Source: Psammoneis japonica (taxonomy: Eukaryota). Taken from it: a stretch of 64,000 bases of DNA. The notes below the pieces were generated by a model that was given only the letters and a program-made list of their open reading frames with translations, did no database searches and was not told where the DNA came from. Position 1 is the first letter of the stretch, and every line of letters starts with the position of its first letter. The stretch covers positions 124,001 through 188,000 of the forward strand of contig QPGO01000116.1 in NCBI GenBank assembly GCA_008632985.1, written 5' to 3'. Positions 11,161 to 54,360 of the stretch are shown here, piece by piece. The position numbers and the translations under genes are program-made.

Positions 11161-11179
11161 GCAGTAGACACGGTAGAAA

Positions 11180-14100: not shown

Positions 14101-17100
14101 AAATTCCATGTTGCCTCATCTGCCAGACCCTGCCAAACTTCTTCCCCTCTGAGAGCATGCAAGAGTGCTGTCAGACAAAAAGGCAAGCTTTGGCACTCAC
14201 AAAGTCAAAATCAACACATGGAATGAACACAACAACAGCCTCTGTGCAACATGCTTGAGTCAGACAACTCATCCAAACCTTGTGATCAATGTGTCACTCC
14301 TTTGCTGTGTTGTTGTGTGTGCCAAAATTTTGGAAAGAAAGGCTGCAAGGAATCAACCAATGGATTGGTCATCTTTTGTCCAGCAGTGGGAACCAGGTTT
14401 CTGTGACATGACACAAACCACCTGCACCTTTCAGAACCAGCAGCATGTGTTGCAGCATCTGTGCCAGATGTGACAGCAGCTGTGCCAGATGCAGCAGCAC
14501 TGCAACAGCCAAGGAAGGAGCTTTTGCCAGAGCAAAAGCCCTGCCATGGTTGTGGTGTGTGCCAGCTCAAGAACTGCAGCAGGAATCTGAAATGTTTGAA
14601 GATGAAGCACATTCCCACCAAAACAAAAAGTGTGCAAAGTTGGAATGACTGCCAGCTGGCGATGCTTCTTGACAGAGGAGGGAGCAATTTGAGTCAGGCC
14701 CAACTGAGCTGTGCATCAAGTGCAGCACCATGATTGATCTCTCTTCTCTTGGCAAGGGCCAAGGGAATTTCTTTGGGCAGCAAACCCCTTTTCCCACAAA
14801 CTGGAAGGTGCTCCTGCAATGCTGCCCTTGGCCCAACTGCCAACATGGCTGTGCACCACCACAACCAAACTCTCAAGGTCCTTTTCTGCAATGATGGAGG
14901 CTCATGACATGACCCAAGGCTCACCTTTTTGTGTGCCCCATCAAGCAGATGACAAGCTGGCTGGTCATCATGAGGTTTTGCTGCATGAAGCTGTTCTCAC
15001 CCTCTGGTGAAACATCAGCACAGGACATCAACATGCAACAAAAGCTGCTGATGGTGTTCTCCTGTTGTCTTCTGCGCATGGATCATCATCAAGAAGATTG
15101 ATGAAAACTGAGTGGCACATCTCAACAGCAGCTGCTTTGCATCACTTGACCATGTCCTGCTTCTTTGCACAATTGTGCAGCACTGTGCTGCTCCAGCTCA
15201 TGACAAGCAGCAATGCCCCTCAAAAGGAGAAAGTGTTTTGGTCAAGCACATGTGGAGCCATCCATGCATTCTTGTTTTGGCTCGCCACTTTGGAGGAATG
15301 GTCAGTGAGGTCAGAGGTTGCCACAGCAGGAGGAGGTTTGTCATCAGGTGCAAGTTGAAGGCCTGAGCAAATGTTTTGAAATGGTGAACACCCACGCCAG
15401 TGGGGACCAGAGGGGCTTGACTTTGCAAAGAGGAAGGAGGTGGAGCAGCTGGCTCTCTTGAGAAATTTCTGACATTTCCAAGGAGCTCCAGAGCTGCAAA
15501 AAATCTGGCAGAGGCAATGGAGTTCACAGCATCTGACACTTCATTGGAGATTCCTGGAATCAGTGGGTGGGGTTGACCTTGCACCGGCAAGGCATCCTCT
15601 GGAAGGTCACTCATCATGCTTTGAAGGGTCTGAGCAAGGTGCAAGCAAACTTGCTTGTGATGTGGTTTCTTGTGCACCAAGACATTGAAATGGGGAAAAC
15701 TGGCCCTCCTCTTTTCATGGGGATGACATCCTGAACACCGTCAATGAGTTTGAGCCAGATGCAAAGGCAGAAATTGACAGTTTTGGCACAATGCAACAGG
15801 GGAACCAAACAAGTTGTTCCGGCAAGTTTGCATTGGTGCTGAATGGCCTTGCCATGCGCTTCAGCTTCAGGATGAGAACAGCGCCAATGGAAAAGGATTG
15901 GGAGCCACCTGGATTGAGTTCTTGGCAGGAGAAGAAATCTTCTGGGGAATGAGCCTGATTGGTGATTTTGCACAGCTGTTTGGCACAAGGCACAATGGCT
16001 TGGAGTTACTTGATGACAACATCAGTGGAACAGCATTGAGGGAAATGCTCAGTGATGTGCAAGGTCTGTGGTGATGGGGCGTCTCATCCCATTCATGATG
16101 CTGTGCACAAATGGAACTGTCTTTGAGAGTCTCACTCACAAAAGAAATGTCTCAAATGTCAGAGAGGGCAAAAGAGGTGTGGAGGTGATGGACAATGACA
16201 TGTGCAGGCTTGTGATGATGAGTGCCACCAATGCAATGAATCACAAAATGTTGAGAGTGAGTTCTCAGACAGGAAAAAGCAGCAACAGCACTGACAACGA
16301 TGGGGCTGATGCAGCAAGTGGTGGTGTGTGGGTGCTGGTTGACTTCTAAGGTGCTAGAAGGCTCATGATGCAGCATCAGTGAAGAATTTTGCCACACGAA
16401 AATCCCAAGCAGCAGCTGTTTGATGTGACATTTTTCACCTTTGAACCAACACAGCCTTCACACATCTCTTGGTCAATTGGGAAAAACCTCACCAACTTGT
16501 CTTGCAGCAAAATGAATCAGGAAATTTGACCTCTTTCCAGCAGCATCAGAAGGTGACAGTGCAAAAAGCAAGGTTGGAACCAGGATTTCCCACCCCCCCA
16601 GCATCATTGTCAGTGTCAAAACAGCACTCTGAAAGCAGCACTTGTTTGCCCAGATTTCAAAGAGCTTGTTGCACAAAGGGGCAGAGCACTCTGGCTCAAA
16701 GTGCGCGACATGCTGCACAACCATGGCCCTTGCAGCGAGCGAGCCGAGAGTGGGGATGATCATGAATCCCACACGAAGAAGAAGAAGAGACTGCAGTGGT
16801 CTGACCAGGCAAATGCCATGGCTCCAGCTGCTCCCCAAGAACCACCATTCCCCTGGCAAGAATGCAATGAGAGAAGTTGGACACTGCTCAAATGATGTTT
16901 CATCACCCCATGCTCCTCCCCGCCCCGATCGCTGGCTCTCTCAACAAAACAACAAGAAGAGCTGCTCGCTCTCCCAGCTCTCACTCTCCTCCTTCAGTGC
17001 TGCTGATGCCTCAGCATCCACAGCAGCTTGCATGGCAACAATGGCTGGGATGTCAGGGATGCTGTGACAACAACCCATGCTGCGCTTGAAAACCCTTGCA

Positions 17101-17140
17101 GTGGAAGTGTCCATTGTGACTTGTGATTGTGCCGAGTTTC
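11180..17140. mobile_element. Degenerate element bounded by long (about 850 bp) diverged inverted repeats; TpA- and CpG-depleted
   Basis: About 11190-12040 is the reverse complement of about 16280-17130 (e.g. tcacaatggacacttcc / ggaagtgtccattgtga; cccctttgtgcaacaagctc / gagcttgttgcacaaagggg). No intact transposase recognised. Confidence 0.65.
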
Positions 17141-17418
17141 GATCTGGAGGAAAAATTGGTTCATGTTTTTCTTTCTTTTGTCATTTTTTTCATTTCTCCA
17201 AATTTTTCATTAGAAAAACGACGCCAATTGAAGATTTCGCGTGTGTACGGAGACTGAGGTAACATCCTACATACCTAAATCCTACACGCCTTCCTGGTAT
17301 AATTCAGCTTCACCTTTCTCTGCGCTTTTTTGCTTGCTGCTCATGGCATGGCGGCGGTGTTTTGCGGAGGTCTCTGAGCTTTACTCAGCAAGAGGGTCAA
17401 ACTCCTATCAGTCTCAAC

Positions 17419-36784: not shown

Positions 36785-36960
36785 AGCCGCCAGCGTTGAC
36801 CTTTAAACCCTTTCTTTCTTTTATACGAAGAAACAACTGCCTTGGAGAAAGACCTGACATTTGAAAACGCTGATTGCGGTTACTGTACTTATTCTACACG
36901 TTTAAGTTACATATTTTTGGTGATATATTGCGTGGCGATAGTTTGTGTGCTGATAGTTCT

Positions 36961-37700
36961 TTACCTATCCAGAGCAGCGTCTCTTGCCAGTACTTCTGGT
37001 GAAAACTTGACTAGAAACACAGCCTTTTCCTTTCTCGGAGGCAAATTGGTGGTTGCACTCCCGCTCCCCGCCATGTTGGAGCCGGGTGCGTTCGCTGCGC
37101 TCATTTCACCCTCTTCCAAAGCGACACTGTGTGCCGTGACACGAGCTGTAAAGCCCGCTCCGTCCAACACTCCCGCAATAATCCCCGAAAGATATGCATC
37201 GACACTTAATTGTCCCAAATCAGAAGGCACCGACACGTAGATGGAGGTAATGGGTTCATAGTCAACAATCATGAATTCATCCGCATGATCAATACTCCGT
37301 TCCAACGAATCCGCAGCCTTTCCAAAGAGAGACTTCCAAACCGACGATGACACGAATTGTAAAATATTCATCAATCTCGTTTCTCGTTTGGATTCACGAG
37401 CGCGATACGCCAACAATTCAAGAACTTTGAGACCGACGCCGTATCCGGCACTCTCCAAACGCCGCTCCAGCTCCGAGATGCTCGCAACGCGACTCTGATG
37501 ATACTGAACCAACTCGGAATACAAATATGCAAAAGCACTCAACGACACGGATCCGTCAGCACTGATTGAGAGAGGAATAAAAAAGAATTAGTTGTGCTCT
37601 GCAAACGAGCTAGCTTTTTGCCACTATAAACCTGTCAAACTCACCGTGAGCCTCGTCCACCCAACGGCCGGTCGAGAATGTTTACGTTTGACCGACTCAT
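36961..37700 (-). CDS. TRAPPC5: TRAPP complex subunit 5 (Trs31)
   Basis: MSRSNVNILDRPL exon 1, intron about 37563-37645, then VSLSAFAYLYSELVQY..LERRLESAGYGVG..VWKSLFGKAADSLE..GF.ARVTAH. Confidence 0.93.
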
Positions 37701-38192
37701 TTCGCTCGTTCGCTAAAAATCTAATAAGTACAGGTGGGTGTATTAAAGTCAACTCTACAATATGATCACTTCTGCGGTGATCAAGAGTCCAACACAGAAC
37801 TACAAAGTCGAGTCTTCAACATAAACAGAGGTAAGCGTCTCTGAAATTGGCCATCTTCCATCTCCGCTCCAAATCACCAAAACAAATTCCAAAATCCGGG
37901 TGCAAAACGACCGCGCAAGAGCAAGCAAGGTTGCGCGTGTGCTCCGTCTGTATGTAGCTCCGTCCCTCCATTTCACAATGTCTTACCGGTACTCGCCTAC
38001 GAAGCCCTACACGAATTTGAAATTTTGGATTTTCGATTGCGTAAGCACACATTTCGTGGCATCGGCACGCACTGCGTTACCTGTTACCTCTACAAGACTC
38101 ACTCACTGACGTGCAAGACTGCTTGCGTTGGCATCTCGCTTTTCTGAGTTTTATACATCCGATGTGCAGTGTCAGAGTTCCTTGTTTAGGTA

Positions 38193-39482
38193 ATGCAGGC
38201 AGGATCGAACTTTGTCGAGACTAGACGTAAAGAGCATGAATACCTAGCGCTCTTCCACGCTCACAAAAATCTCATTGTTGGCGGACACGGCGTGGTGGAG
38301 AAGCCTGTAAATGCCAAAGGCGAGTGTGGCCGTAAACAACCTAGACGCAGCATGACGATAAAAGAGGCAGCAGAAATAAGCAACAAATCTCTTATGAACT
38401 TCTTCCCATCCTTTGATACGTTGGGAGACGTGAACTATTTTCAAGAACACGAACTCTCTGTCGAGGAGTGGCTCCAGTATTGCCTCTACAAGCTACCAGA
38501 AAAGAGGAGGCGCGTACCACAGCCAATCCTCGACCTTGAAAACAATAGCGATAGACAGGATGACATGCCTTCTTTCTTCTCGCCTTCCGACGCTGGTCGA
38601 GAGCTTTCTCCAGGCTATTTCCTGCATCCTGTGACTCAAGAGAACCTTGCAGATGCACAAGATCTTCTCTTGGAGATTTTTCCTGACGACGTTGCGCATT
38701 TTGAAGTTGTATTTTCGGTTCTTAAGAAGCCCTTTATTGAGTATGAGTTTGACAGCGACATTGAAAACTCTCCCACCGTTGCCAAATCTTTCTTTTGGCT
38801 GATCGTCGAGAAGGCGACTGGATCGCCTGCTGCCATTTGTTCTTTAATGTACCGTGATGAGGACTATGAAGACTCGCTTTGGGGGAGTTGGTATGGCGTT
38901 GGTCCAACCTTTCGTCGTAAAGGGTTGGGTTCTTTAGTTCTCCTCTTCTTGTTAGAAAAAAGTGTCTTGTCTCGCAAAAGAACCGCCAAGTTCTTTACTG
39001 AGGAGTTGGATTTTGAAGAGCAAGCCAACAGTTTGTACGACTACGTCGGGGCGAAAGTGTACAAACGCCAGTACTTCCCGAAAGGCAAGTGCCACCGTAT
39101 CTGGAGGCAGGCTCAAGTCGGTGGTTCGTTGAAGAATTTGTTCGTTGGGCTTCTGCTTATCAACATTCTGCGATTTCTGCATCGTTGTCGATGCTTGTTG
39201 TGGGAATTGTCTGACCTTGCTTCACTGCAACAAGACAGCAAGCGGTCCGTCATTTGCGCCCCTGCGAAGACGACGAAAGGTGACAAGCTACTGGGCTGGC
39301 TAATCGTGCTCCTTCCCCTATCTTTCGTGACGGAAAGCGTGAGGCGCTTTGCAGCGCGCTTTCCCAGCATCGTACAGCAGACGGTTGTATCCATCGTCAA
39401 CCCATTTGAACCCTCACAATCAGAAGTTGTGGAAGTTCCTCCAATCAATAGCCAAGCCAACAGCTTGGAAAAAGGTGACTGA
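38193..39482 (+). CDS. GNAT-family acetyltransferase, paralog 1
   Basis: Motif A WYGVGPTFRRKGLGSLVL, motif B ANSLY..VG; hydrophobic C-terminal segments; the true start may be downstream. Confidence 0.75.
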   Translation: MQAGSNFVETRRKEHEYLALFHAHKNLIVGGHGVVEKPVNAKGECGRKQPRRSMTIKEAAEISNKSLMNFFPSFDTLGDVNYFQEHELSVEEWLQYCLYKLPEKRRRVPQPILDLENNSDRQDDMPSFFSPSDAGRELSPGYFLHPVTQENLADAQDLLLEIFPDDVAHFEVVFSVLKKPFIEYEFDSDIENSPTVAKSFFWLIVEKATGSPAAICSLMYRDEDYEDSLWGSWYGVGPTFRRKGLGSLVLLFLLEKSVLSRKRTAKFFTEELDFEEQANSLYDYVGAKVYKRQYFPKGKCHRIWRQAQVGGSLKNLFVGLLLINILRFLHRCRCLLWELSDLASLQQDSKRSVICAPAKTTKGDKLLGWLIVLLPLSFVTESVRRFAARFPSIVQQTVVSIVNPFEPSQSEVVEVPPINSQANSLEKGD

Positions 39483-41050
39483 ACGGTCAGTGCACTTCTA
39501 ATGTCTCCCTGTGCTTGTGGCTAGATCCTGTTTGGGATCAGCATTGCGATAGAGTGCAACATTTTTGTCAGCCTTTCTTGTTGTACGGTGCAACATAAAT
39601 CTCACGGTGTTTCACGAAAAAGTGCCAAGTTGCACACACACAGACAAACGTAATTATTTTTAATCATTATTTTGTTTATAAACATGTCGTCGCTAGCCTA
39701 CTGCAACAGTCTGTATCTCTTTTCTTCAGCAACCAAGCCACGCCCAACGCATTCTTCGTCTAGAGAGGCACTTCCAACAGAAATGGACCCACACCTCACC
39801 AACTGCACCACTGCTGTTTACGACAACCACCATTGCCAGTCCCCATCCACACTCGGGACTTGTTTGACCATTTGTGTGGGGAAGACGGCACAGAATTCAC
39901 AGAAAAAAGTGCTGGGTTGTGTGCTTTTTGTCGCCTTAAAAGTGGAGGTGGGTTTGCAAATGGACTGCCACCACAGTCAGCAAGCTCCACCACACACGTT
40001 GCTCATGCTGAATCTGTTCTTTGCTTGTGCAGGAAAATGCCATCAAGAGAAATGAGACACTCACCCAAGTTTTGCCATGCAATGCAGGGATGAAAATTCA
40101 GTTTGGTCAAGAGGTGCTGTTGGGAAGTGCAAAGCTCTTTCTGTTGTTCAAAAGAAAGCAAGATGTGGCAAGTTGGCCAACTGACAAGAAGTTTTTGACT
40201 CTGAAGAGGATTCGAAGGTGAAAGAAATGTGCACAACCCCCAGGTCTGAGTTTCACCCACTCTCTCTTCCAAGGTCATGTCTGATGTGAATCACACTGGC
40301 AATCTCCAGTGTCAATCACACAAAGAAACATTGAAAGAGAGCTGGTGCATGTTCTTTTCGGCATGTTTGTGCTGGGCATCCTTGACAATGAACTTGAGCA
40401 TTTGCAATGAAAAAACCTTTGTTCAAAAGAAGAGCTGACCATTGATTCTGAGTGAGAGCTCAATCAAGTGCCAGCGACATAAAAATGAAAGTTGATCCAA
40501 GGCTGGCAATGGCACCCAACTGCAGAATGGGCTAAACAAGCTCAGAGCATCTGCTTTCAGCAGTGCAGCAGTTGACCATCTAGGTGCATTGTTTTCAGCT
40601 TTGGTGCTCACATGAAAAATAAAAAAAATGCACACACTCACTGCTCACTTGCTTTCCTGTTGACACACCCAAACTCCATCACTTTTCTGTGGCCTGTTCT
40701 ACATTTCATTCATTGCCATCCAGACACTCAAGGCTTGAGGATCTGATGGCCCAAATGAACAAATGTTCTTGTCAAAGAACTCTTGTCATGCAGAGTGTTG
40801 GCCTGGAAGAAAGGCCACTTCAAGCCCTCACAGCCATGGACATCCATGCCAGCAGAATGACAAGCAAAACGAAAATGTCAGTGGAGCAATGCAAACAACA
40901 AAGAACTGCTGATGACAACCATCACAGCATGTCAACCAGGGCACCTTTCAGATGTGATTCTGAGTCATCCTGCCAAATTTCACAGCCCCAGGCACCGCCA
41001 GTGGTTTGTGACATCTGCGCATCCAAGAGGAGGTGAGGAGCCAAGCAAAA

Positions 41051-41054
<4 letters not shown>

Positions 41055-41090
<36 letters not shown>
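41055..41090. repeat. (CT)n microsatellite
   Basis: Run of about 17-18 CT units. Confidence 0.95.
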
Positions 41091-41095
<5 letters not shown>

Positions 41096-41835
41096 TACCC
41101 AGTGCAAAGCCTGGTCTTGTGGTTGTGCACTGCTGAGATCTCCTGCAACTGTGTGGGCATCATTGTGTTTTGGAAAGTGAACACAACATGGCTGAAGAAT
41201 GGGAAGAGGGGGTCAGCCAACAAAGACCAGGTGCCTGTGCACAAGATCTGGGAGACACAGAAAAAAGGCTCACAGGCCATGCAAGTTTTGTCAAAACAAG
41301 TCCAGTTGTCAATCGATCACAACGCGCTCACAGATGTGTCTTCTTTGGAGCATTGCAAGTCATTCTAACAAATGTCATTGCCACAAGTGCTCCCAATGCT
41401 CCATGGCATTGTTTCATCACAAAGGCGTGTGCCACCCAACAGGAATTGTGACACCCTAAAAACTCATGCCATGTTTGCATCATCAAAGAAAAGACCCCAA
41501 TCCATGCCGAGGTTTGGATGACACAAGTGACAATGATGCAATGTGCAGCTGCAAGTGAAAAACATCAAGAGAATGATGATTTCACAATGTGCACCCAGAG
41601 CAGAGATTGTTGCCTCCAATGTCAGCTGTCGCAGAGCAATGCTGCAGCCTGCGTGCAATGTGGCAAATTTCAATTCTCTCCAAAGCTTGAAAAAAGCCAA
41701 GCAATCTTTTTCAAAGTTGGCAATCTTGACAAAGAGCATGGATGGTTTCATGGGTGACTTTGAGCCACTGGAGCTGTTTCAGCTTTTTCAAATGAAAATC
41801 AAGCTCTCGGCTGGCCTCAAGAACCTTGTCACCCC

Positions 41836-42212
41836 TTTGGATTCATGAGTGCAATGCACCACCAACGGTTCAAGACCCTTTAGACCGATGCCGCACCCGA
41901 CACTCTCCAGCTCCAAGATGCTTGCAATGTGACTCTGATGTAGCTGGTCATGCTGAGCCACTCAATGACACAGATCCATCAGCACTGATTGGAAAGAGAA
42001 CAAGAGAATTGGTGCTTTGCAAATGAGCTGGCTTTGCACCACAAACCTGCTGTCAAACTCACCCCGTGGGCCTCGTCCACCCAACCGTCGGTCGAGAGAA
42101 TGTTTGCATTTGACAGACTCATCATTTCTCTCATTTGCTGAAAATCTAACAAGCACAGGTGGTTGCAGCCAAGTCAAACTTGTCAAGATGATGTGATCGC
42201 TTCTGTGGTGAA
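41836..42212 (-). pseudogene. Decayed copy of the TRAPPC5 5' region (exon 1, intron, start of exon 2, promoter)
   Basis: Aligns to about 37387-37780 (e.g. cctcgtccacccaac, tgtcaaactcacc, cagcactgattg) with deletions and YpR transitions. Confidence 0.9.
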
Positions 42213-42816
42213 CCACACACTGAATTTGAAAATTTTTGATTTTTCGCCGTTTCGGCCAGTTTCTGATCTTTTAGCACCTTTTTCACAATGTGCTTGTCAC
42301 GAAATGCTCTGATTGTTGATTGCTGATTGCACTTCCTTCGATTCTTCTAACAGAGACAGTGTGTGGAGGAATGGCGTCAAGATGAGATGGGATTGTGCAG
42401 CACTGAATGTCTTGGTGCATCCTGCTTCTAGGATGCGGTGCACACGCAGCAAGTTTGCTTGATGCGGCCGCCCTCTGCGTGGCCCATGCGCCTCTTCTGC
42501 GGCTCAACAGGGCCCTCTGGCAGAGCAGCCAGAGTGCTCTCTCTGCTCTAGCTGGAGCTGGCCCCAGCTAGAGAGCTGGCTGGCTGGGACAAGATGATGG
42601 AAGGAGCAACGCGACATTTTGTTGCACATGTCAGCTGCACCATCACGCTCCACATTTGAAGCTTTTGGGCATTGTTCTGCATTGAACGAATGCATCATCA
42701 TCCGCCAAGCTTTTGTTTGTGTGCGCTCGACAACAAATTCGCGAGATCAGTCCAAGAAATGCGGCATTGACATTCATGACGAGATTGCTTAGAAAGTGTG
42801 CACTGCTCACATTCCG

Positions 42817-43288
42817 AGTCGTGGTTCGTCTGTCCACTGACCCAGATTCTCTGTTGTGTCTGTGCTTCCGTCAGTCGGAATTCTCGTTGAAATTCTTTTC
42901 GCGCTACGTCGACTTGATTCTCAAGCCGAATGCTTTGGGAATCACAGGCGGTGCTTTGGAGATCACAGGCTTTGCACAGATGTTGGGCCAACCACAGATT
43001 GGTTCAGCAGCATTTGGATGATTGTTGTGAATGTGGTTGACCCTGAAGTTTGCACCAGTCTCTAGTGCAAACCTGCAGATCAACCTCTGTTTGGGTGCAT
43101 TCAGCAGATTCAGTCTAGGTGGCTCACAATTTGGTCGCCAGCACTTTTGTGAAAGACTGAACACTCGTCACCACTCGTCAGCAGATTCCATCTGCTTGCA
43201 TTCTGCCTGAGGTGTCAATCTGGAGTGGACATCCAGTCGATGCGTCAGGAAGGCACTCGGAGCTTGCGCGGACACGCGAGCTTCGACT
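42817..43288 (+). repeat. 5' LTR
   Basis: AGTCG..CGACT, colinear without indels with the 3' LTR. Confidence 0.95.
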
Positions 43289-43672
43289 GGCCAGTTCGCC
43301 CAATTGGGGCAACTCAACACGTTCTGCGCTTCTGGTTGGGGATGCCCAAACCAGAGCAACCCTGTCAACAGCTCTGATGCCATCAGTGCTCCTCATTGGC
43401 TGTGCTCCGTGCTCTTGACATCAAGCACTGCGACTGACTCCGTCAGCTGAGTGGCTGGTTCCGCCAGAAGGTTCATTGTTGATTTTGCACGTGCACCATC
43501 TCAGGCCCCACTCCACCCCGCGGCCCTCCTGAGACCCAAGAGAGTTCTCCAAGCTTGCACTCTTTGATTGAGAACATCCCAGACGATTGGTCCGACTCGA
43601 CAGCTTCAAGCGTGCTGTCGGACATGGCTGACGACCCCGAAGTGTTCGAGGATCAGCCTCCTGAGGATCAAC

Positions 43673-44121
43673 TGCAATGTGCAGCTACCAACAAGAGTCA
43701 ATGCATCACGGCGACGTGTTGCAGCCTTTAAATGTCACAAAGGGCGTGACGAAAATAACCTTTTGTCTGCATGCATGCTGCGTTGTGAATTCACAGCGGA
43801 GTGGTTCATCTCGCAACCATTGGGCAGGAGGCCAGGGGTTCGAAACCCTGAGTGGGAGTTGTCTGCAGCAACGTTGATCACTGTCGAACGCGCAAAACTC
43901 TGTGCAGTTCTGCATGTTCCTTCGCACGCACCCACACTGTTCCGCCAAAACCGTGCAGTGTCAGCACACGTCAGCAAAGAGCCGCATGGATGCATGATGC
44001 ATGGGGAGGAGTGCAATGCACAGCTGCCAATGAGAGTCAATGTGTCACGGCGACGTGTTGCAGCCTTTAAATGTCACAAAGGGCATGACAAAAATGACCT
44101 TTTGTCTGCATGCACACTGCA
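43673..44121 (+). mobile_element. TRIM (miniature non-autonomous LTR element) nested in the Copia gag
   Basis: 110-bp direct terminal repeats 43673-43782 and 44012-44121, TG..CA ends, PPT ggggaggag before the second repeat, 4-bp TSD CAAC. Removing it restores the gag frame EDQ-PPQGDN. Confidence 0.88.
43794..43850 (+). promoter_or_regulatory. tRNA-type Pol III internal promoter (A box and B box) inside the TRIM
   Basis: cagcggagtgg (TRGCNNAGYGG if TA to CA is reverted) at 43794-43804 and GTTCGAAAC at 43838-43846 in a caggg..ccctg stem; 33-nt spacing as in tRNA genes. Confidence 0.6.
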
Positions 44122-47100
44122 CAACCTCCACAGGGGGACAATCCACCACCTCAGGACCCCAACAACCCAGACGACAAGCCTGTTCCACCCTTGGAACTTC
44201 GCCTGGACGATTCGGATGACGACTCGGACGATGATGATGATGAGCCCGCTGCAGGCTCTGGCATGTCGGAAGACGAGCGTCGCACCATTCAGGCCATGGC
44301 TGCCATGGCAGCCGCGGCGATGCCGAAGATGAAAGTCTGCAAACCCAAGGCTCCTAAGATGGGGGGGGGTTGTCTCCATTGGCTCCACTGAAAAAGTTGC
44401 TTGGACCGGTGGGAAACCCAAGGCTGGCTGGTCCAGATTGGAAACTCCCAACTCCAGTCCAACGTCACCAAATCAGTGTCGCTCCCACCACGTTTCTTCC
44501 GCCCAGAAAAGCAAGGCCCACTGAGTTGCCGGACTTTCAACCAAGTTTGACAAGAAGGGAGATCTTGCAACCTTTGAGAAGAATGTGATGAAGCATCTCA
44601 AGGGCTGCGGTTTGGATGCGGTGACTTGCCTGCAGGACCCCAAGGACTCAACTTCCGTGATGTCTTGTGTTGAAGGACATCCTCGGCACTCCAAATCGAG
44701 CGTCGCCCGTCTTGTCGCACCTCAACTCGCCAAGCATGACTCCTGCGATTCATCCAATGACAGGGACACTGCTGAGTTTCTCAAGAACTCCTTGGAGGCT
44801 AGCCTGGCCATGCAGCTGGATCTGGAGACGGAAGAGTCGGATTGCTTTCCGAAAGTCTGGACAGCTCTCGTCGTGATCCTTCAGAGCACATCCATCGAAC
44901 GCTTCAAGCAGCTCGAAAAGCAGCTAGAGGAACTCAAGCCCTCCCAGTTCGCCGGTCAGGATCTCTCCCAGCTCCTGTCCAAGTTCAAGACTGCGGCCCA
45001 AGAGTTGGATGTTGCGGGTCAGTGCAACCACAAGCTGACGCTTGCCTTGGTCAACGCTTGCCTGGAAGCTGGCGGGGATGGCAAAAACGGTCAGCAGTTC
45101 AAGCACGCCCTTCGCACTGTGAAAGAGAATTTGAGCAAAGCACTTGTTGAGACAGCGCACAAGTCTAAGACAGACGCGAAACGACACCTTGCGTCCAAGA
45201 ACCTTGCCCACTCTCAAGTCATTGGAAAGATCCTGGACCGCTGCCGCTTGTTCAAGAACAACACGCAGTGGGATCCTGTCAAGCATGCGACAGACTCCAA
45301 AGCCGCTCCCAGAGCCTTTGGAAACCTGGCACTTGATCCCTCAGCCACTTGTCAAACGGTTGGAGTTCCACTCACTCAGGCCCAGTTCAATGCTCTCTTC
45401 CAGCAGACGGCTGCTCCCCGCAAGAAGACTCCGGAAAACTCTCCATGCAACAACTGCGGCAAGCTCGGACACTGGGCACGTGACTGTCCCAACAAGTCTG
45501 GTGAGGGCACTGGAAACAACCAAGGCGGCTCAAACCCTGGGCAAAATGGTGGAGGACAAGGAGGAAGGGGCAAGACCCGCTCCGGTGGCAACGGAGTCAA
45601 GGTGGTGACGGAGGCAATGGCAACGGTGGCGCCGTGCGCAACTGGAAGAAGGTCGCGCCTCGTCCCAGACAACCTGAGTCCAAGGTTGCTCAGGGCAAGA
45701 CTTGGCACTGGTGTGCCAAGTGCCGTCGTTGGTCCACCACTCACGGTGCTGCTGAGCATGGGCAGAAGGATGAGTCACCTCCTGCGCCGACTCAGCAGGC
45801 CAACACCCTCTTCCTGGATCCTGGAGCGTGGCACGCGGAATTCGACTTTGAGTTGGGATTCAAGGACGCACCACTTGGACTGTTTCAGGTTGTGCTCACC
45901 TTGATCCACCCTTTTGCATCTCTGCTGCTCTGTGCCACCTTGGGACATTGGTGTTCTCAGCTTCCGGCCAACTGGTGGATTGCTGGAGTCAACGCCATGA
46001 TCTGGTTCGTGACGGTCGTTGCGTCGCATGTCTCATCACATTGGCGCCTCTGTCCTTTGCCCGCAATCTGGTTCCTTCTGCTTCCAGTGGCGGCATTCTT
46101 GCCGTCTAAGTTTGAGCGTGATGCTCGTGCCGAAGCCCCACGTGCTCCTCCTCCACCCCCTCCTCCCCGCTGGGCCACACACCAAGGAACCAAGTTCTCC
46201 AAGCGCCGCGAACGTTGGGGGTGTCGTCGCCTGCGGGAGCTTCAGCCTCGCTGCGGACGCCGCCGTGCTCCACCCAGGCATCCCTCTCTGTCCAACGTGC
46301 CCGTGGGGCGCCTGGTGTCAAGCAGCGGCAGCGCAATCAGTTGTGTGACCTCAGTGAAGAGGTCAAGGCCTTCGAGCGGTCACTCACCTTCATGCACGCA
46401 CGTCCTCTCCTCGGTCGAGAGGGAGAAGCCGGTCGTCCCAAGGGCACCAGACGTTGTAAGAGCACTGCTCTAAAAAGGGGTCCTGATGTTCGTCATCAAG
46501 GTCGTCGGAACCTCAGTGCACCCATGTGTCGCCCTGTTGGTTCAAATGCTGCACACGGTTTGACGCGCTCCCAGCTTGATGCCATCTGCTCCCCAGCAGC
46601 CAAGGCTTGTCTTGCCAATGCTGACGTCCCGTAACCTCTACTTTCTGTTGCTGGCGCTCTCAAGGTGGCGTTCACGAGTCCCAAGGAGACAAAGGAAGTG
46701 GTCAAAGAGCACACCTTCCCGGTCATTTGGGACTCAGGAGCAAGCGTGTCGGTCTCACCTTGCAAGGACGACTTCGTCGGGCCTCTCGAGAAACCACCTG
46801 TCGCCATCCGGCTCCAAGGTGTCGCAAAGGGCCTCCATGTGGCAGGTGTTGGACACGTTGCTTGGTCTTTTGTTGATGTCATTGGGGTGCTTCGGACCCT
46901 GAAGGTTCCGGCCCACTGCATCCCCAAGTCCAAGGCTCGTCTCTTGAGCATGACCAGTCTCTTGCAGACGCACTTGGATGAGTCCATCGAACTGCTGTCG
47001 GACCGCACCATCCTCAGTGGATCCAAGAATCGTGAACAAGGACACAGGCGAGGTGTTGAAGTGTTGATTGAACCTTCAACTAACCTGCCGGTTGGATGGG

Positions 47101-49231
47101 CCTGCGCGAATCAAGCAAGTCAACAAATTTGTGAGGAGTTTCATTTGACGTTGTCGACGATTGTGGAGCACAATCACAATGTCTCACCTGCTGAAAAGGA
47201 GCTGCTACGTTGGCACTTTCGTCTCAGGCATCTGAGCTTTCGAAAGGTGCAATTTTTGATGCGTGCGGGAGTTCTGTCCCACTCCGAGGGCACCCATCAT
47301 TTGCATGAACGCACTTGTCGCATCGATCGTCCGCCCCTTTGTGCCGCATGCCAACATGGAAAACAAAAACACCGTCCCAGCCCCGGAAAGACTTCTCGTG
47401 TCGTCAAGGATCGAGCTGGAGCCTTGAAGAAGGACCAACTGTTCCCCAGTCAATGAGTTTTGGTTGATCACTTTGTTTGTTCCACTCGTGGTCGTCTGAA
47501 ACACACTTTTGGAAAGGAGAGCATAAAACATCAGCATTTGGGCAGAGCAATCTTTGTGGATCATGCATCCGGTTGTGTCAACGTTCAACATCAAACTCAC
47601 CTTAATGCCCATGAAACTTTGACGGCCAAGAACGCGTTTGAGGCCCATTGTCGTGATTGTGGCGTTGTTCCCCAAGAATGTCTGAGCGACAACGGAAAGG
47701 CGTTCACGTCGGCCAATTTCAGGGTTCACTTGGAATCTTTTGCTCAAGTTTCAAAGTGTGCCGGTGTGGGAGCTCACCATCACAATGGGGTTTGTGAACG
47801 AGCAACACACACTGCGATGTCGATCGCGAGAAGTGTGATGTTGCATGCGGCGATCCATTGGCCTGATGTTGCGGATGCCACTCTTTGGCCTTTGGCTGCA
47901 GACCACACTGTTGTGCTTCACAATGTGATGCCAGACCCATCTGCGGGTCTAAGTCCACAGGACATGTTCACCCAGATGCGCAACCCTCACTCTCGGTTCC
48001 AGGATTGTCGTGTTTGGGGGTGCCCTGTTCATGTTCTTGACAAAGCCCTCGCCGATGGAAAGAAACTGCCAAAGTGGAAACCCCGCGCGAGTTGGCATGT
48101 CTGTGTGGGACTCAGCCCCGAGCATGCCTCGTCAGTCCCGCCAGTCTTGAGTCTTGAAACGGGAGCCATCACTCCACAATTCCATGTCGTTTTTGATGAT
48201 TGGTTTGCGACGGTTCCTGCCAATGCCAGCTCGTTGCCTCCCATTGGGTCTCTGGAATGGACGTCTCTTTTCGGAGACAGTGCATGTCAACATGCTGTGG
48301 ATGATGAAGAGCAGGCTGATGTCGACATCCATCAAGAACACCCAGAATGTGAGCGCCGATCCGAGGAAATCCGCGAAACCGTCACCTGCCGTTCGCCTCC
48401 CAAACCCTCACAGGTCCCTCCTCTGGCTGCTCAGGCACCAGTGTCTTCTCCCAAGGCCCCCTCGAGTCCTGTTGTGGAAACCCCGGTCCCTGAGGTGGAG
48501 TCCATGCCTCCACCAGAGTCTCCTGCTGAACCTGTGGCTTCAGACTCGCCTCAGAGGGAGAGAGCACCCGCTGCCAACTCAAATGCCCCACCAAGTCCTC
48601 AGAGGGAGCCTCCCACCCCTCGCAGTCTTTCTTCGGATCTCGGTCAAGAGAGGGAGTCACCACCTGTGGCTCCACCCAGCACACAACGCCCCTCTCCAAC
48701 CCCAGTTCGTCGCTCAACCCGGACTCGCGCTGCGCCCCAGCGGTTTGGATGTGATGGATCTCAGGGACACGGATGCTTGTCTCACTTCGTTGATTTCCAT
48801 CATGCACACAAGTTTGACCACGGTTGCAACATGTCCATGACTGCTCCCACCGTGTGCAAGGCGTCGGTGCGTGAAATCAAGGATCCGGGTGCGCCATCGT
48901 GGGACGAGGCCATGCGCTCTTCCGATCGCGACAAGTGGTTGAAAGCAGCTGAGATCGAGATTGCAGCACTTGTCCATCAAGGAATGTGGGTCGAGGTGCC
49001 TGCATCCGATGCTCGAACCAAGATCCTTCCCGGCACTTGGGCATTTCGTCGCAAGCGATCACCTTCAGGCGAGATCAAGAAGTGCAAGGCTCGCTGCTGT
49101 TGTCGCGGCGATCTGCAGGAAGGAAGTCTGTTTGATGCTTGTGCACCGGTTGCAGCCTGGAGTGCAGCTCAAGCATTTTTGGCATTGAGTCTCATTCTTT
49201 GGATGGCATGCGGCATCCGCCGATTTCCAGT

Positions 49232-49834
49232 CCGCATTTGTTCAAGCAGTGCTTCCTGTGGAAGAACCAGTTTGGATTCATCTTCCATGAGGTTTCAGCT
49301 CAATGAAAGGACCCAAGACTTGTCTCAAGCTCGTCAAGAGTCTCCTGGACTCTCTTCGGCTCCAAAGTTGTGGTGTGAACATTGTCTGCAAGCCTTCTTG
49401 GACTTGGGTTTCATCCAAAGCGAGTACGACCAATGTCTCCTGCTTCGCCATGATTGCATGGTCTGCCTGAATGTCGATGATTGCGGGATCAGTGCAGCGC
49501 AGGAGCCCACCATTGATCAGCTGATGTTTCAGCCGCATTCGTTCAAGCAGTGCTTCCTGCGGAAGAACCAGTTTGGATTCATCTTCCATGAGGTTTCAGC
49601 TCAATGAAAGGACCCAAGACTTGTCTCAAGCTCATCAAGAGTCTCTGTGGACTCTCTTCAGCTCCAAAGTTGTGGTGCGAACATTGTCCACAAGCCTTCT
49701 TGGACTTGGGTTTCATCCAAAGCGAGCACGACCAGTGTCTCCTGCTCCGACATGATTGCATGGTCTGCCTGCATGTCGACGATTGTGGGATCAGTGCAGC
49801 GCAGGAGTCTACCATCGATCAGTTGATGTCTCAG
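49232..49834 (+). repeat. About 301-bp tandem duplication within RT
   Basis: ccgcatt(t/c)gttcaagcagtgcttcctg.. begins at 49232 and again at 49533; both copies encode SSAPKLWCEH..VDD. Confidence 0.92.
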
Positions 49835-50905
49835 CTGCACGAGAAAGGATTTGAATTGACGAAGGAGGGCAGTTTTGCCAAGTTCTTGGGCATCAAGTTC
49901 GAAAGGAGAGACGACGGCACCATCAAGTTGACGCAGAAAGGGTTGACTGACAAGATCCTGTCAGCTGCCGGCTTGATTGATGGCAAACCAAACTCACTCC
50001 CTGCGGCGTCCCAAGCCCTCGGCACCGATGCGGATGGAGATCCCATGCAGGAGGACTGGAGCTGTCCCTCCGTTGTTGGAATGCTCCTGTGCTTGTCCAC
50101 CAATGCCCGTCCTGACATTTCCCTTGCCGTCAGTCAGGTTGCACGCTTCAACTCCAACCCGAAACAGCCGCGTGCAACGCCGTCAAGACTCTGGTCCGCT
50201 GCTTGAAAAGGACGCATGATCAGGGGATGCTGCCATCTCCAACCGGTCGTTTGGATCTTGATTTGTGGGTTGATGCCAATTTGCTGGTCTCTGTCGCTGC
50301 GAAGCAGATTCTGATCCGAGTTCTGTGAGGTCACGCACCGGATGCATCACAACTCTCAGTGGATGTCCTTTGGTGTGGAAATCGCAGCTCCAGTCAGCCA
50401 TTTCCTGCTCCACCCTCGAAGCCGAGTGTCAAGCCGCCTCCTGTGCTCTTCGGACTCTCCTGCCTTTGAAGAACCTGCTCCTTGAGATCGTCTTTACCTT
50501 GGACATCTCCCAAGATCTCAGGACTTCGGTTCGTCCGCGTGTGTTCGAAGACAATCAAGGCGCTCACTGCCTGGCTGCCAACCACCGCATCACCAATCAT
50601 GCCAAGTGTTTTCTCGTCAAGTGGCATTGGCTCTGGTTGCATTGTGATGAGTTCAACACGATTGAGGTGGAATCGGCCGAGCAACTCGCCGATTGTCTTG
50701 CCAAGCCTTTGACTCGAGAGCTCTTTGAGAACAACCAGTTGAAGGTCCAAGGGTGGCGGCACTTTGGAAGCATCGCTTCCTTTGTTTGTCATGTGTTGTG
50801 GCTTGGTCAAGATGTGGGAGCTTTGCTCTGAACTTGTGCCAATTGTGTGAGCTTTCTCGTTTGCGATTTTCTTGTTGGTTGCTGGAATCTGTGAATGAGA
50901 GGGAG

Positions 50906-51377
50906 AGTCGTGGTTCATCTGTCCACCGACCCAGATTCTCTGTTGTGTCTGTGCTTCCGTCAGTCGGAATTCTCATTGAAGTTCTTTTTGCACCACGTCG
51001 ACTTGATTCTCAAGCCAAATGCTTTGGGAATCACAGGCGGTGCTTTGGAGATCACAGGCTTTGCACAGATGTTGGACCAACCACAGATTGGTTCAGCAGC
51101 ATTTGGATGATTGTTGTGAATGTGGTCAACCCTGAAGTTTGTGCCAGTCTCTGGTGCAAACCTGCGGATCAACCTCTGTTTGGGTGCATTCAGCAGATTC
51201 AGTCTAGGCAGCTTGTGGTTTGGTCACTGGCACTTTTGTGAAAGACCAAATGCTCGTTGCCACTCGTCAGTAGATTCCATCTACTTGCATTCTGCCTGAG
51301 GCATCGATCTGGAGTGGACATCCAGTCGATGCGTCAGGAAGGCACTCGGAGCTTGCGCGGACACGCGAGCTTCGACT
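50906..51377 (+). repeat. 3' LTR
   Basis: Preceded by the PPT and followed by TSD TTCCG. Confidence 0.95.
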
Positions 51378-51454
51378 TTCCGCAGAGAAATCAAGTCACA
51401 TCATCCCACTGCACAACTTCATGTTGTAACATGAACTGACAATGACATTGTTGT

Positions 51455-52555
51455 TCATTGTTGGATGTTGACATTCCAAATGAGTCCGAGCTTTTCCAAA
51501 GGCACCAAGAAAAACCAACATGCAGTGTTGCACTCACTGCGTTTGGCCAACCTTGCATGATTGTGATGGTCCAGGTGTTCACCCTCGGTGATGAAATGGG
51601 AAAAAGGGGTGCACAAAAGATCAAAGACAAGAAAAGGCAGACAGCAACCAGATGCACTGGCCTTGAAGTTTGACGCCATGCATTTGTTCTCGGTGTGAAT
51701 TGGTTTCTCGTCGAGGGGTGGCGGATGGTTGTGGCAACGTTAAACCAGAGAGTCATGGTCTGGCAGAGCCAAGAAGAAGCAAAGGCCACAAACAGCGTAG
51801 TGTGCCAAAATGAACTCCATGCTTGGCACTGTCCATGCCCATGCATCCAGAATTCTGATTGCCGGCGTGTCAATTTTTCGCGGTGCAAACTCTTCGTCGA
51901 CATCCTCATGAACATCAAGATCAAAGAAAGAGAAAGCCAACTCAACCCCGTAGAGCAGCGGTGCATGTGGATCGCCGGGGACGTCGCAAAACTTGTGATG
52001 ACGCCGATGCTGTGATGACCACCACAGGGGGCCGCCCTGATTCGAAATTGCCCCCAGTGACAGCATGCATGTGGACGTGATCGGTCCACACTGAAAGGCG
52101 CCGTGAGCAGCGTAGCGGTACAGACACACTGACATGAAAATGTTAATCTTTGTGAGTGCAAGAGCAAGTGATAGTGCTGCAAGCTTGGTTGGAGCATCAA
52201 ATGTCCACAGTAGAATCAACGAGCTGAAGTAGATGGGAACGATGGCAATACAGTATTGCGTTTTCATCCCTTGGAGAGCCGAAAGAAGAATCGACAACAG
52301 ACATACGGTACAAAACGTCTTGATCTCGTAAGTTTCCAGTTCCTTTACCAAGACAAAGATGGCACCAACAAGCGTGGCTACAACCCCCACCGAGAAAAAG
52401 ATGTTGGTTCCACCACGATTGTACCACTTTCTAGCGACAGCATCATCGTTGGTGGACTGTCTCATGACATTGTTTGCGGTAGTATTCATTATTGATGTTG
52501 ATGCCCTTGCGAGTGTAGGCGTTCTGTGTTGTGCGTGGAGGGTGGGCGTGAGCAT
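51455..52555 (-). pseudogene. Membrane fatty-acid (delta-9-like) desaturase, probably disrupted
   Basis: QGGPLWWSSQHRRHHKFCD..DPH (His box 2) and GEHLDHH (box 3). His box 1 reads CLYRYAAH instead of HRYxxH, there are two frameshifts, and the 3' part shows apparent Y to C changes. Confidence 0.75.
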
Positions 52556-52663
52556 GGAGAATTAAGAAAGGAGTTGCCACGATTGTAAGCACGATATTCC
52601 GTGGCACTGGGTCACAAGATTATAGGCGTTGGCGTGAGGCTTATGTGAGGTTTAACCGTCCTG

Positions 52664-53974
52664 ATGTTCAGTGTCGCAGTCGCAGTTACTTATTTAGTGC
52701 AGGCGGGATTAAAATTTGTCGAGAATAGACTTCGAGCGGGATTATTGCGATGGAGCGCTCGTCCACGCTCACAAACATCCTCGTTGTGGGCGAACACGGC
52801 GTGGAGGAGAAAGCCAGTACATGTCAAAGGTGTGTTTGGTGATAAACAAGCAAGGCGCAGCATGACGATATCACAGGCAGCAGAATTAAGCGACAAATCT
52901 CTTATGGATTTCTTCCCATCCTTTGATACGTTGGGAGACGTGAACTATTTTCAAGAACACGAACTCTCTGTCGAGGATTGGCTCCGATATTGCCTCTACG
53001 AGCTACCAGAAAAGAGGAAGTGCCTACTTGAGAACAATGGCGATAGACAGGATGGCATGCCTTCTTTCTTCTCACCTTCTGACGTCGGTCGGGAGCTTTC
53101 TCCAGGCTATGTCCTGCATCCTGTGACTCAAGAGAACCTTGCAGATGCACAAGATCTTCTCTTGGAGATTTTTCCTGACGATGTTGCGCATTTTGAAATT
53201 GTTTTTTCGGTTCTTAACAAGCCCTTTATCGAGTACGAGTTTGACAGCGACATTGAAAACTCTCCCACCGTTGCCAAATCTTTCTTTTGGCTGGTCGTCG
53301 AGAAGGCGACTGGATCGCCTGCTGCCATTTGTTCCTTAATGTACCGTGATGAGGACTATGAAGACTCGCTCTGGGGGAGTTGGTATGGCGTTGGTCCTAC
53401 CTTTCGTCGTAAGGGGTTGGGTTCTTTGGTTCTCCTCTTCTTGTTAGAGAAAAGTGTCTTGTTTCGCAAAAGAACCGCCAAGTTCTTTACTGAGGAGTTG
53501 GATTTTGAAGAGCAAGCCAACAGTTTGTACGACTACGTCGGGGCGAAAGTGTACAAACGCCAGTACTTCCCGAAAGGCAAGTGCCACCGTATCTGGAGGC
53601 AGGCTCAAGTCGGTGATTCGTTGAAGATTTTGTTCGTTGGGCTTCTGCTTATCAACATTTTGCGATTTCTACATCGTTGTCGATGCTTGTTGTGGGAATT
53701 GTCTAAACTTGCTTCACTGCAACAAGACAGCAAGCAACCCGTCACGAGCACGCTTGCGAAGACGACGAAAGCTGATAGGCTACTGGGCTGGCTAATCGTG
53801 CTCCTTCCCTTATCCTTCGTGAAGGAAAACGTGAGTCGCTTTGCAGCCCGACTTCCCGGCATCGTGCAGCAGACGGTCGTATCCATGATCAACCCATTCG
53901 AATCCTCGCAGTCAGAAGTTGTGGAAGTCGCTCCAATGAAAAGCCGCGCCAACCGTTTGGAAAAAGATGACTGA
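52664..53974 (+). CDS. GNAT-family acetyltransferase, paralog 2
   Basis: Core nearly identical to 38193-39482. Confidence 0.75.
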   Translation: MFSVAVAVTYLVQAGLKFVENRLRAGLLRWSARPRSQTSSLWANTAWRRKPVHVKGVFGDKQARRSMTISQAAELSDKSLMDFFPSFDTLGDVNYFQEHELSVEDWLRYCLYELPEKRKCLLENNGDRQDGMPSFFSPSDVGRELSPGYVLHPVTQENLADAQDLLLEIFPDDVAHFEIVFSVLNKPFIEYEFDSDIENSPTVAKSFFWLVVEKATGSPAAICSLMYRDEDYEDSLWGSWYGVGPTFRRKGLGSLVLLFLLEKSVLFRKRTAKFFTEELDFEEQANSLYDYVGAKVYKRQYFPKGKCHRIWRQAQVGDSLKILFVGLLLINILRFLHRCRCLLWELSKLASLQQDSKQPVTSTLAKTTKADRLLGWLIVLLPLSFVKENVSRFAARLPGIVQQTVVSMINPFESSQSEVVEVAPMKSRANRLEKDD

Positions 53975-54360
53975 CCAGGAGTACGGTTCTTATGTCTTCC
54001 TCCTGTGCTTGCGGCGAGCCATCCGCTTCGAAATAGATGGCTGATTTTTTGGTGTGTCAGAACATTTCTGATATCACTGTGCCCTCAGACCTGGTCTTGT
54101 TCGTGTATTATCATAATCATATGTGCGGCTTTATCTTTGGGATCCGCATCGCGCCTAAATACGAAGTTAGTAGCTCGTATTTTATAAAAAGAAATTTTCT
54201 TGTGTCATGGAGTTGTACGACTAGCTAGAGCATACTCGTTCAACGCTGTTGTGCGGTGAATGAGTATGTTCATCCTCCGCAAAGCTTGCGGGCGTCTTGC
54301 AGCGTTATACCGGTACGTGTTTGCCCTACCGGTAGGACGATTACTGAACTCCGACTTTTG

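Follow-up and report, generated by a model that had tools for sequence, protein, structure and literature searches.

The closest described system to the one considered here is a hypermutation at TpA that affects viral DNA integrated into the genome of the chlorarachniophyte Bigelowiella natans (Mettrop et al., April 2026, bioRxiv 10.64898/2026.01.13.699255). In mutation-accumulation lines of this species, two viral regions received 231 of the 302 point mutations recorded in the nuclear genome; nearly all mutations in these regions were A>G or T>C, each was on TpA, and the rate was ~6e-7 per site per generation, ~1000-fold over background (Mettrop et al., 2026). The same source describes 124 TpA-poor, CpA+TpG-rich clusters in the genome and an enrichment of reverse transcriptase and DDE domains in low-TpA genes, and its authors propose an ADAT2-like adenine deaminase (Mettrop et al., 2026). 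This single preprint, on one species and on viral insertions, is the only earlier report found of an A:T>G:C hypermutation limited to one dinucleotide. No report of TpA hypermutation in diatoms was found in full-text searches of the freely accessible literature.

Repeat-induced point mutation (RIP) of ascomycete fungi, which is triggered by duplication, converts C:G to T:A, mainly CpA to TpA; it creates TpA and lowers GC. CpG methylation occurs on diatom transposons. Described here is a stretch of 64,000 nt from Psammoneis japonica (assembly GCA_008632985.1, contig QPGO01000116.1, 124,001-188,000 of the forward strand), termed the window. It displays a strand-symmetric, TpA-specific A:T>G:C change in DNA that is confined to domains containing mobile or inverted-repeat DNA.

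Two islands depleted in TpA

TpA is nearly absent from two islands, delimited by composition and, for the first, also by inverted arms. Island 1 (11175..17210, 6,036 bp) contains 8 TpA, as against 235 predicted by the density in the rest of the window, and island 2 (39820..52112, 12,293 bp) contains 49, as against 479. These figures represent losses of 97% and 90%, respectively (Poisson p < 1e-80). The TpA observed/expected ratio is 0.02 in island 1 and 0.07 in island 2 versus 0.58 outside, and the TpA frequency is 0.0013-0.0040 in the islands versus 0.039 outside. The island borders are sharp to ~100-200 bp: dense TpA stops at 11174 and restarts at 17211, then stops at 39761 and restarts at 52113. 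When the stretch is cut into 1-kb windows, 56 of 253 have five or fewer TpA.

The missing dinucleotides are matched by a gain of TpG and CpA, with observed/expected ratios of up to 1.5-1.9 in the islands. The two are gained equally, with 1173 TG and 1151 CA in island 2 and 686 TG and 681 CA in island 1. The sum of TA, CG, TG and CA per kb is unchanged, at ~234-236 in the islands versus 241 outside. CpG is also depleted, with 39 CpG in island 1 (observed/expected 0.11) and 526 in island 2 (0.62), as compared with 1.02 outside; within island 2 the ratio is 0.18 in 39820-41835 and 0.69 in the copia element described below, where GC reaches 0.52-0.62. A runs test for strand-coordinated TG/CA tracts revealed no sign of processivity in either island (z = -0.35 and 0.09), although saturation would mask it.

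Island 1 is an inverted-repeat structure, with arms at ~11188-12669 and 17137-14711 whose edges agree with those of the island within ~15-70 bp. The arms become much clearer once transitions are ignored. As TAA and TAG are nearly absent from the islands, all six frames are open over long distances and the open reading frames found there are meaningless. None of 36 open reading frames in island 1 has a Pfam match, and the 53 island open reading frames outside copia gave only a sub-threshold desaturase match and a chance-level PH match. Searches of 39500-52500 with Rfam (E <= 0.01) and ARAGORN found nothing.

The TRAPPC5 gene and its dead partial copy

An intact TRAPPC5/Trs31 gene lies outside the islands at 36961..37700 on the minus strand. 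It consists of exon 1 (37645-37700, with the ATG at 37700-37698), an 83-nt GT..AG intron (37562-37644) and exon 2 including the stop codon (36961-37561), as determined from open reading frames and the sequence, and for the gene as a whole also from diatom homologues. A contig from run X2, which is labelled 'DNA?' yet behaves like a transcriptome, skips exactly the 37562-37644 intron, and the gene is thus expressed. X2 yielded no contig across 39970-43371 and run X3 none anywhere in the window, absences that make no statement on expression. The diatom TRAPPC5 search was made with exon 2 alone (199 of 217 codons). Its translation (199 aa) has 688 protein matches at E <= 0.001; PF04051 is present in all of the best 120 of these, and identity to diatom trafficking protein particle complex subunit 5 is 77-93% among the top 20. 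The nearest of these proteins, at 88-93% identity, are already distant enough for saturation to be expected at silent sites. As the closest proteins are those of diatoms, the window comes from a diatom, and the gene, which shows similarity to the family (PF04051) over its full length, is assigned to TRAPPC5/Trs31.

When 41301-42700 was compared with the window by blastn, the single other match was 37387-37780, with 71% identity over 413 columns and in the same orientation. The corresponding segment of island 2, on the minus strand at 41836..42212 as delimited by blastn and alignments, is 377 bp long and has 3 TpA and 10 CpG. It includes exon 1 and the intron in addition to ~80 bp of 5′ flank and approximately the first 60 codons of exon 2. 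The segment carries in-frame stops, a 12-bp deletion and one larger deletion, and its match to TRAPPC5 proteins is restricted to the first ~80 codons. The presence of the intron indicates that duplication was at the DNA level and that this is not a retrocopy; the segment is a dead, partial, DNA-level duplicate of the 5′ part of TRAPPC5. Its 3 TpA compare with 14.7 predicted from the density outside the islands (Poisson p = 3e-4).

The intact and dead sequences were aligned in two ways, with MAFFT and with a transition-lenient global alignment; the former produces more spurious transversions and gives the same picture. MAFFT yields 83 substitutions in 371 aligned columns. Read from intact to dead, these comprise TA>TG 6, TA>CA 6, CG>TG 10 and CG>CA 7, the remainder being 26 other transitions and 28 transversions. 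The transition-lenient alignment has 73 substitutions in 378 aligned columns. In it, the 19 TpA of the intact sequence became TG in six cases, CA in six and CC in one, with three kept and three in indels, so that 12 of 16 alignable TpA turned into TG or CA. The 32 intact CpG correspond to 11 TG, 7 CA, 7 kept, 4 other and 3 indels. Transitions affect 14 of 34 TpA bases versus 18 of 165 other A/T bases (odds ratio 5.7, Fisher p = 8e-5), and 18 of 59 CpG bases versus 8 of 120 other G/C bases (odds ratio 6.1, p = 6e-5). When the pair is read in the opposite direction, from dead to intact, there is no TpA effect (0/6).

Direction of change

For polarisation, the intact exon 2 was placed in an alignment with 60 TRAPPC5 proteins of diatoms. 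At a codon that changed from TAC to TGC (Tyr to Cys) in the dead copy, 59 of the 60 outgroups have Tyr, and at one that changed from TAT to CAT (Tyr to His), the outgroup residue is Tyr in 53 and Phe in 5. One further Tyr, present in 58 of 60 outgroups, is lost within a shifted stretch of the dead copy. At seven of eight non-synonymous changes at CpG sites the outgroups agree with the intact copy, the eighth column being too variable. In a comparison of exon 1 with the N-termini of 50 outgroups, its sole TpA codon is in a variable column. The outgroup residues thus indicate that the intact copy retains the ancestral state wherever the sites are informative. Strict outgroup polarisation covers two to three TpA sites of the pseudogene; at synonymous, intron and 5′-flank sites the direction assumes that the intact gene approximates the ancestor, an assumption that is complemented by the island-wide composition.

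The pseudogene had been singled out in the first-pass annotation, made from the letters alone, as the feature that polarises the mutation. Its coordinates, 41836-42212, are correct, although dinucleotide counts reveal a pattern that reaches far beyond them, and the eight pairs of intact and dead strings that it quoted are all present in both alignments. The CG to TG/CA changes that it noted alongside TpA loss are found at 18 of the 32 intact CpG. Its premise that the intact gene approximates the ancestor is borne out by the 60 diatom proteins where they are informative. A formal alignment of the two copies and a context-specific substitution count, the latter proposed there as a check, bear the pattern out as well, TpA and CpG bases both being significantly enriched for transitions. 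The wording of A to G on either strand holds in that the T:A pair of TpA becomes C:G, but an origin as A>G is indistinguishable from one as T>C, whichever the strand. The direction assigned to the pseudogene is right, and a host TRAPPC5 fragment caught as a bystander does polarise the change; the pseudogene is not special, however, being a host fragment in a 12.3-kb island.

The copia element and its LTRs

The core of island 2 is, as judged by its LTRs, zinc knuckle and an integrase-type motif before RVT_2, a Ty1/copia LTR retrotransposon on the plus strand. The 5′ LTR (42816..43288) and the 3′ LTR (50905..51377) are each 473 bp, with 92.4% identity by self-blast, the 3′ LTR being supported by alignment as well. 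The internal region (43289..50904), defined by Pfam matches and homologues, carries frameshifts and an in-frame TGA at 47454-47456. Predicted coding segments are gag with a zinc knuckle (44525-45901; Pfam zf-CCHC), a gag-pre-integrase segment (46635-47453; Pfam gag_pre-integrs), integrase plus reverse transcriptase (47457-49604; Pfam RVT_2 for the RT) and a continuation of RT (49592-50203). The 716-amino-acid open reading frame has an integrase-type motif N-terminal of the RT, and no rve domain was found in the element at E <= 0.01. There are 383 homologues, the best with 48% identity over most of the length; a tblastn search of the window with 120 of them found nothing outside 44363-50756. 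A possible target-site duplication matches at 4 of 5 bases.

At integration, the LTRs at the two ends of an element have the same sequence. Here they differ at 36 of 473 aligned positions, and all of the differences are transitions, the pair being 100% identical in purine/pyrimidine coding. Ten CA/TG pairs make up 20 of the differences; a further 9 are CG versus TG/CA, 4 are TA versus TG/CA and 3 are other, such that 33 of 36 are in the TA/CG-to-TG/CA classes. A CA in one LTR facing a TG in the other is one ancestral TpA (or CpG) resolved separately in each LTR. CpG is kept in both LTRs at 16 sites and in one at 9, from which at most ~1 of the 10 CA/TG pairs is expected to derive from CpG. The estimated loss per LTR is ~87% of TpA and ~22% of CpG against a background of ~0.3% per lineage, all from small counts; by our own arithmetic on these small numbers, the per-base speed over background is roughly 300-fold for TpA and roughly 40-fold for CpG. 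As the LTRs were identical at integration and are now discordant, the change struck DNA in place, after integration. The pseudogene had been called the most direct evidence of direction in the window; that place belongs to the LTR pair, which is stronger and needs no polarity.

A tandem duplication of 305 bp within the RT region (49215..49839, plus strand), detected by self-comparison, has units at 49215-49537 and 49516-49839. These units display one discordant CA/TG pair, where ~6 would be expected had the duplication preceded the purge (Poisson p = 0.017), but 10 differences at CpG sites. The tandem thus arose after the TpA purge, with CpG decay continuing. Two contigs from run X1 skip 49534-49840, which shows that the duplication is absent from other copies of the element.

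The effect on the encoded proteins is seen in tyrosine, whose codons begin with TpA. Nine columns of the polyprotein hold Tyr in at least 60% of 50 homologues, and the element has lost the residue in all nine (Cys 4, His 3, Pro 1, Asn 1); lost Tyr codons now read TGT, TGC or CAT, and other conserved residues are mostly retained. Tyr makes up 0.1% of the 716-amino-acid open reading frame versus a median of 2.5% among homologues. The RT motif is NVDD/HVDD, as compared with YVDD in the homologue consensus.

Depth in X1 over the body of the element is 600-1000 versus ~60 in unique DNA, which suggests ~10-20 genomic copies. Among these copies there are 696 transitions versus 91 transversions, and adjacent CA/TG doubles occur at 44862/3, 46747/8 and 47963/4.

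Flanking DNA and a control gene pair

To the left of copia, island 2 comprises the dead TRAPPC5 fragment and 2 kb (39820-41835) of CpG-poor sequence without recognisable origin. On the other side of copia, the island takes in the 3′ part of a desaturase-like open reading frame whose 5′ part is outside it. This frame (51740..52558, minus strand), characterised by its ORF, a PF00487 match and the positions of TpA, has a PF00487 E value of 2.5e-4, which is below the Pfam cut-off, and covers profile positions 7-82 of 253 only. Leftwards of 52112 the frame is TpA-poor and the family match ends. The dead TRAPPC5 copy and the desaturase-like 3′ part are best regarded as host bystanders in a purged island.

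Gene A is a 430-amino-acid open reading frame with weak GNAT acetyltransferase matches at 38125..39524 on the plus strand, recognised from its ORF and by self-comparison. A second copy, 87.6% identical, is found just outside island 2 at 52626..54018, also on the plus strand, and an X2 contig that spans 52184-53000 continues into it. The TRAPPC5 fragment and the second gene A copy suggest one old duplicated block, and the gene A pair is probably part of the same block as the fragment. The arrangement suggests that copia and other DNA may have been inserted later into this old block.

The gene A copies share 37 TpA and have no CA/TG pairs, and CpG is retained as well. Changes affect 3 of 86 TpA bases versus 32 of 574 other A/T bases (p = 0.6), i.e., a TpA effect is not found in this pair. 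A duplicated pair that keeps its TpA shows that the purge is not triggered by duplication as such.

Proposed process and alternative explanations

The explanation preferred here, at a probability of about 0.8, is DNA-level TpA hypermutation in two presumably silent repeat-derived domains, with host DNA as a bystander. Nearly every TpA in such a domain has become TpG or CpA, on either strand equally often, and CpG in the same domains becomes TpG or CpA more slowly. The process acts in place once a sequence has entered the domain and stops within ~100-200 bp of its edge. The most economical cause would be an enzymatic activity recruited to silenced chromatin. The most likely chemistry would be deamination of adenine following thymine, with inosine copied as G, as proposed for B. 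natans; we put forward adenine deamination specifically as a tentative choice, at somewhat less than even odds. An identical footprint would result if thymine, and not adenine, were modified mutagenically at TpA. The CpG loss would most likely be ordinary 5-methylcytosine deamination in methylated repeats. It grows with age, from 22% in the young LTRs to ~72% in the dead TRAPPC5 copy and ~90% in island 1.

The reality of the sequence has to be considered, since misreading of modified bases (for example modified thymine or adenine at TpA, and 5-methylcytosine at CpG) could produce such islands in DNA that still is TA and CG. The LTRs differ nearly only at TA/CG-type sites and are purine/pyrimidine-identical, as randomly resolved miscalls would be, and once its TA/CG-site changes are set aside, the TRAPPC5 pair has a divergence similar to that of the gene A copies. 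Moreover, X1, the sole DNA run containing the stretch (75% of sampled words present; one sample), is probably the assembly's own sample and not an independent isolate, with a platform that is not on record. Its contigs were nevertheless assembled independently of the assembly and agree with it: the contig at 39624-41046 has 1 other letter, that at 41099-42868 has 2 other letters and no gaps, and that at 51348-52939 has none. The k-mer depth of these island contigs is 60-65, and that of unique flanks is 56-60 (56 for 36001-38429). Clean contigs of 1.4-1.8 kb at single-copy depth are not expected from noisy long reads, and miscalls that depend on the strand should, as the step is palindromic, give two half-depth variants per site. 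A random miscall predicts a discordant RT tandem, yet only 1 pair is discordant there; a context-determined miscall predicts concordant LTRs, yet 10 pairs are discordant. Neither is the age-graded loss of CpG predicted, and a sequencing artefact is considered very unlikely. Hyperediting of retrotransposon RNA by an ADAR-like A-to-I activity before reverse transcription has still less in its favour and is hardly tenable. As one set of regions in the RNA template supplies the sequence of both LTRs, RNA editing cannot make them differ, yet 33 TA/CG-type positions do. DNA that is not of retrotransposon origin is purged too (the intron-bearing TRAPPC5 copy, the desaturase-like 3′ part and flanks), and the equal TG and CA counts, with runs-test z values of ~0, also speak against it. 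The 5′ U preference of ADAR, as stated in the B. natans preprint (bioRxiv 10.64898/2026.01.13.699255), does fit the TpA context, a retrotransposon makes up the largest purged unit, and the inverted repeat of island 1 could form double-stranded RNA.

A homology-triggered process similar to RIP, in which duplicates are recognised by pairing and changed by a different chemistry, is unlikely, though it would suit a purged set made up of a multi-copy copia element, a duplicated gene fragment and an inverted repeat. The retention of TpA in the gene A pair speaks against it, as does the single-copy depth of 39970-42804 in X1, although old purged copies would lose shared 31-mers. A single-copy region is described as the main target in B. 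natans (bioRxiv 10.64898/2026.01.13.699255). That no special process is needed, i.e., that neutral decay, biased gene conversion or selection against TA would suffice, can scarcely be credited. TpA is under-represented outside the islands too, and CpG-only decay is common, with several metagenomic copia loci at CpG ratios of 0.17-0.35 and normal TpA. Such processes do not account for a near-complete loss of TpA inside sharp borders, nor for that in the LTRs at 0.6% background divergence. The loss of catalytic and conserved Tyr excludes selection on function, and GC-biased conversion would neither remove CpG nor be restricted to TpA.

Relation to other systems and significance

The hypermutation in Psammoneis resembles that of B. 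natans in that A:T>G:C transitions are confined to TpA, lead to TpG or CpA and occur in discrete regions, at a rate that is orders of magnitude over background (here ~300-fold, from small counts). There are several differences. The host here is a diatom (Stramenopila) and not a chlorarachniophyte (Rhizaria), and the mutations are all inferred from fixed differences, none having been observed to arise, whereas those of B. natans are new mutations in cultured lines. The identified targets here are an LTR retrotransposon and an inverted repeat, with host fragments as bystanders, and not viral DNA, and the LTR pair provides a post-integration timing. The purge is saturated, whereas the NCLDV region of B. 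natans still has 3.3% TpA, and CpG is co-depleted; neither CpG nor diatoms are mentioned in the text of the preprint (Mettrop et al., 2026).

As in fungal RIP (e.g., PMC2621366, PMC7296669), there is an irreversible, dinucleotide-specific transition hypermutation of repeats, with compositionally aberrant islands that can leak into adjoining host DNA. Unlike in RIP, TpA is destroyed (depleted 10- to 30-fold), GC rises and the duplicated gene A pair is untouched; RIP itself was rejected as a candidate on its opposite direction and its duplication trigger. The change of CpG to TpG/CpA in the islands, slower than TpA loss and growing with age, is like 5-methylcytosine decay, which leaves the loss of TpA unexplained. 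Editing by ADAR and APOBEC similarly produces deaminase-type transition clusters against selfish elements, with the 5′ U preference in the case of ADAR. In the summary given for these enzymes by Mettrop et al. (2026), however, editing is of RNA or single-stranded cDNA, pre-integration and strand-asymmetric, whereas here it is post-integration and strand-symmetric. ADAR-type editing fixed by retrotransposition was also rejected, the LTRs being discordant at 10 CA/TG, 4 TA and 9 CG sites.

The purge is not general among diatom copia elements. Among metagenomic loci with copia relatives (80 kept of 509 confirmed), none is purged, the lowest TpA observed/expected ratio being 0.34, and none of their 1,470 1-kb windows has five or fewer TpA. 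Likewise, none of 120 homologous copia proteins is Tyr-poor.

Several consequences are practical. In a genome of this kind, long open reading frames within repeats carry no information, since TAA and TAG cannot occur there, and copies of a repeat can be matched to one another only by searches that disregard transitions. Dating by LTR divergence overestimates age ~tenfold, as the raw divergence is 7.6% versus 0.6% outside the TA/CG classes. A natural enzyme activity is suggested, and this would be of interest to base-editing research.

Relative to B. natans, the Psammoneis locus adds a second, distant lineage, saturation, an LTR retrotransposon as target, proof of post-integration action, bystanders and an unaffected control duplicate. 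Diatoms and chlorarachniophytes represent two distant branches of the SAR supergroup. It is conceivable, if somewhat more doubtful than not, that they share an enzymatic defence directed to silent chromatin, which would edit TpA in double-stranded DNA, through conversion of adenine to inosine or an equivalent reaction at thymine, until the target has lost every such step. If so, transposons, viral insertions and trapped host DNA would be irreversibly killed by a natural, context-specific A:T-to-G:C DNA editor that is a mirror image of fungal RIP. The saturated end-state found in a diatom would then turn a curiosity of one alga into what is possibly a widespread genome defence of eukaryotes.

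Surviving TpA in the purged islands

The two TpA-purged blocks, island 1 (11175-17210) and island 2 (39820-52112), retain 57 TpA dinucleotides, and these are non-random with respect to flanking bases. Over-represented contexts are CTAA (13), CTAG (10) and CTAC (7). A T directly after the surviving TpA is found in none of the 57, versus 28% outside the islands. When both strands are counted, survival is enriched ∼2-fold with G after the TpA and 1.7-fold with A after it, and is depleted 6-fold with T after it. These skewed contexts may reflect a flanking-base preference of the purge process, with TAY worst affected; alternatively, the surviving sites may be newly arisen TpA. A palindromic stretch rich in (AGCT/CTAG)n is situated just beyond the left edge of island 1 (11104-11159), and palindromes with CTAG are also present within island 2 (42540-42580).

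The copia element and the island 2 border

In the Ty1/copia retrotransposon of island 2, the gag-pre-integrase and integrase-RT open reading frames share the same frame and are separated by a lone in-frame TGA (47454-47456), a codon that a CGA to TGA transition at a CpG would generate. There are at least four frameshifts elsewhere in the element.

The copia leader (43372-44505) carries two copies of a repeated unit of ∼110–140 bp (43673-43810 and 44012-44147). In X1, a DNA run whose contigs were built independently of the assembly, k-mer depth of the unit is 23,000–53,000 compared with ∼60 for unique DNA, and several hundred copies are therefore indicated genome-wide. Rfam and tRNA searches gave no match; the unit does contain a T-arm-like sequence, GGTTCGAAACC. 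Possible identities are a SINE/MITE-like element and a satellite.

A fatty-acid-desaturase-like open reading frame (51740-52558, minus strand), with a sub-threshold match to only the first third of the PF00487 profile, starts in normal sequence and crosses the border of island 2 (52112). It probably represents a host gene that was truncated by the insertions and then purged inwards from the border.

The flanking gene A copies

The gene A copies (38125-39524 and 52626-54018), which lie outside the islands, are 87.6% identical overall. In their central part, over 100 bp are perfectly identical, which suggests gene conversion. At 38690-39258, X1 variants comprise about half of a doubled depth (53/116). 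These half-depth variants are explained not by heterozygosity but by alignment of the paralogue (52.6-54.0 kb) to this interval. X2, a run that behaves like a transcriptome, has only the version of the 52.6-kb copy at these sites.

CpG decay in environmental relatives

Some metagenome loci with copia relatives (L031, L034, L060 and L014) display strong CpG depletion (observed/expected ratios of 0.17–0.35) and normal TpA. CpG decay of such elements therefore occurs without TpA purge in other diatom-like genomes.
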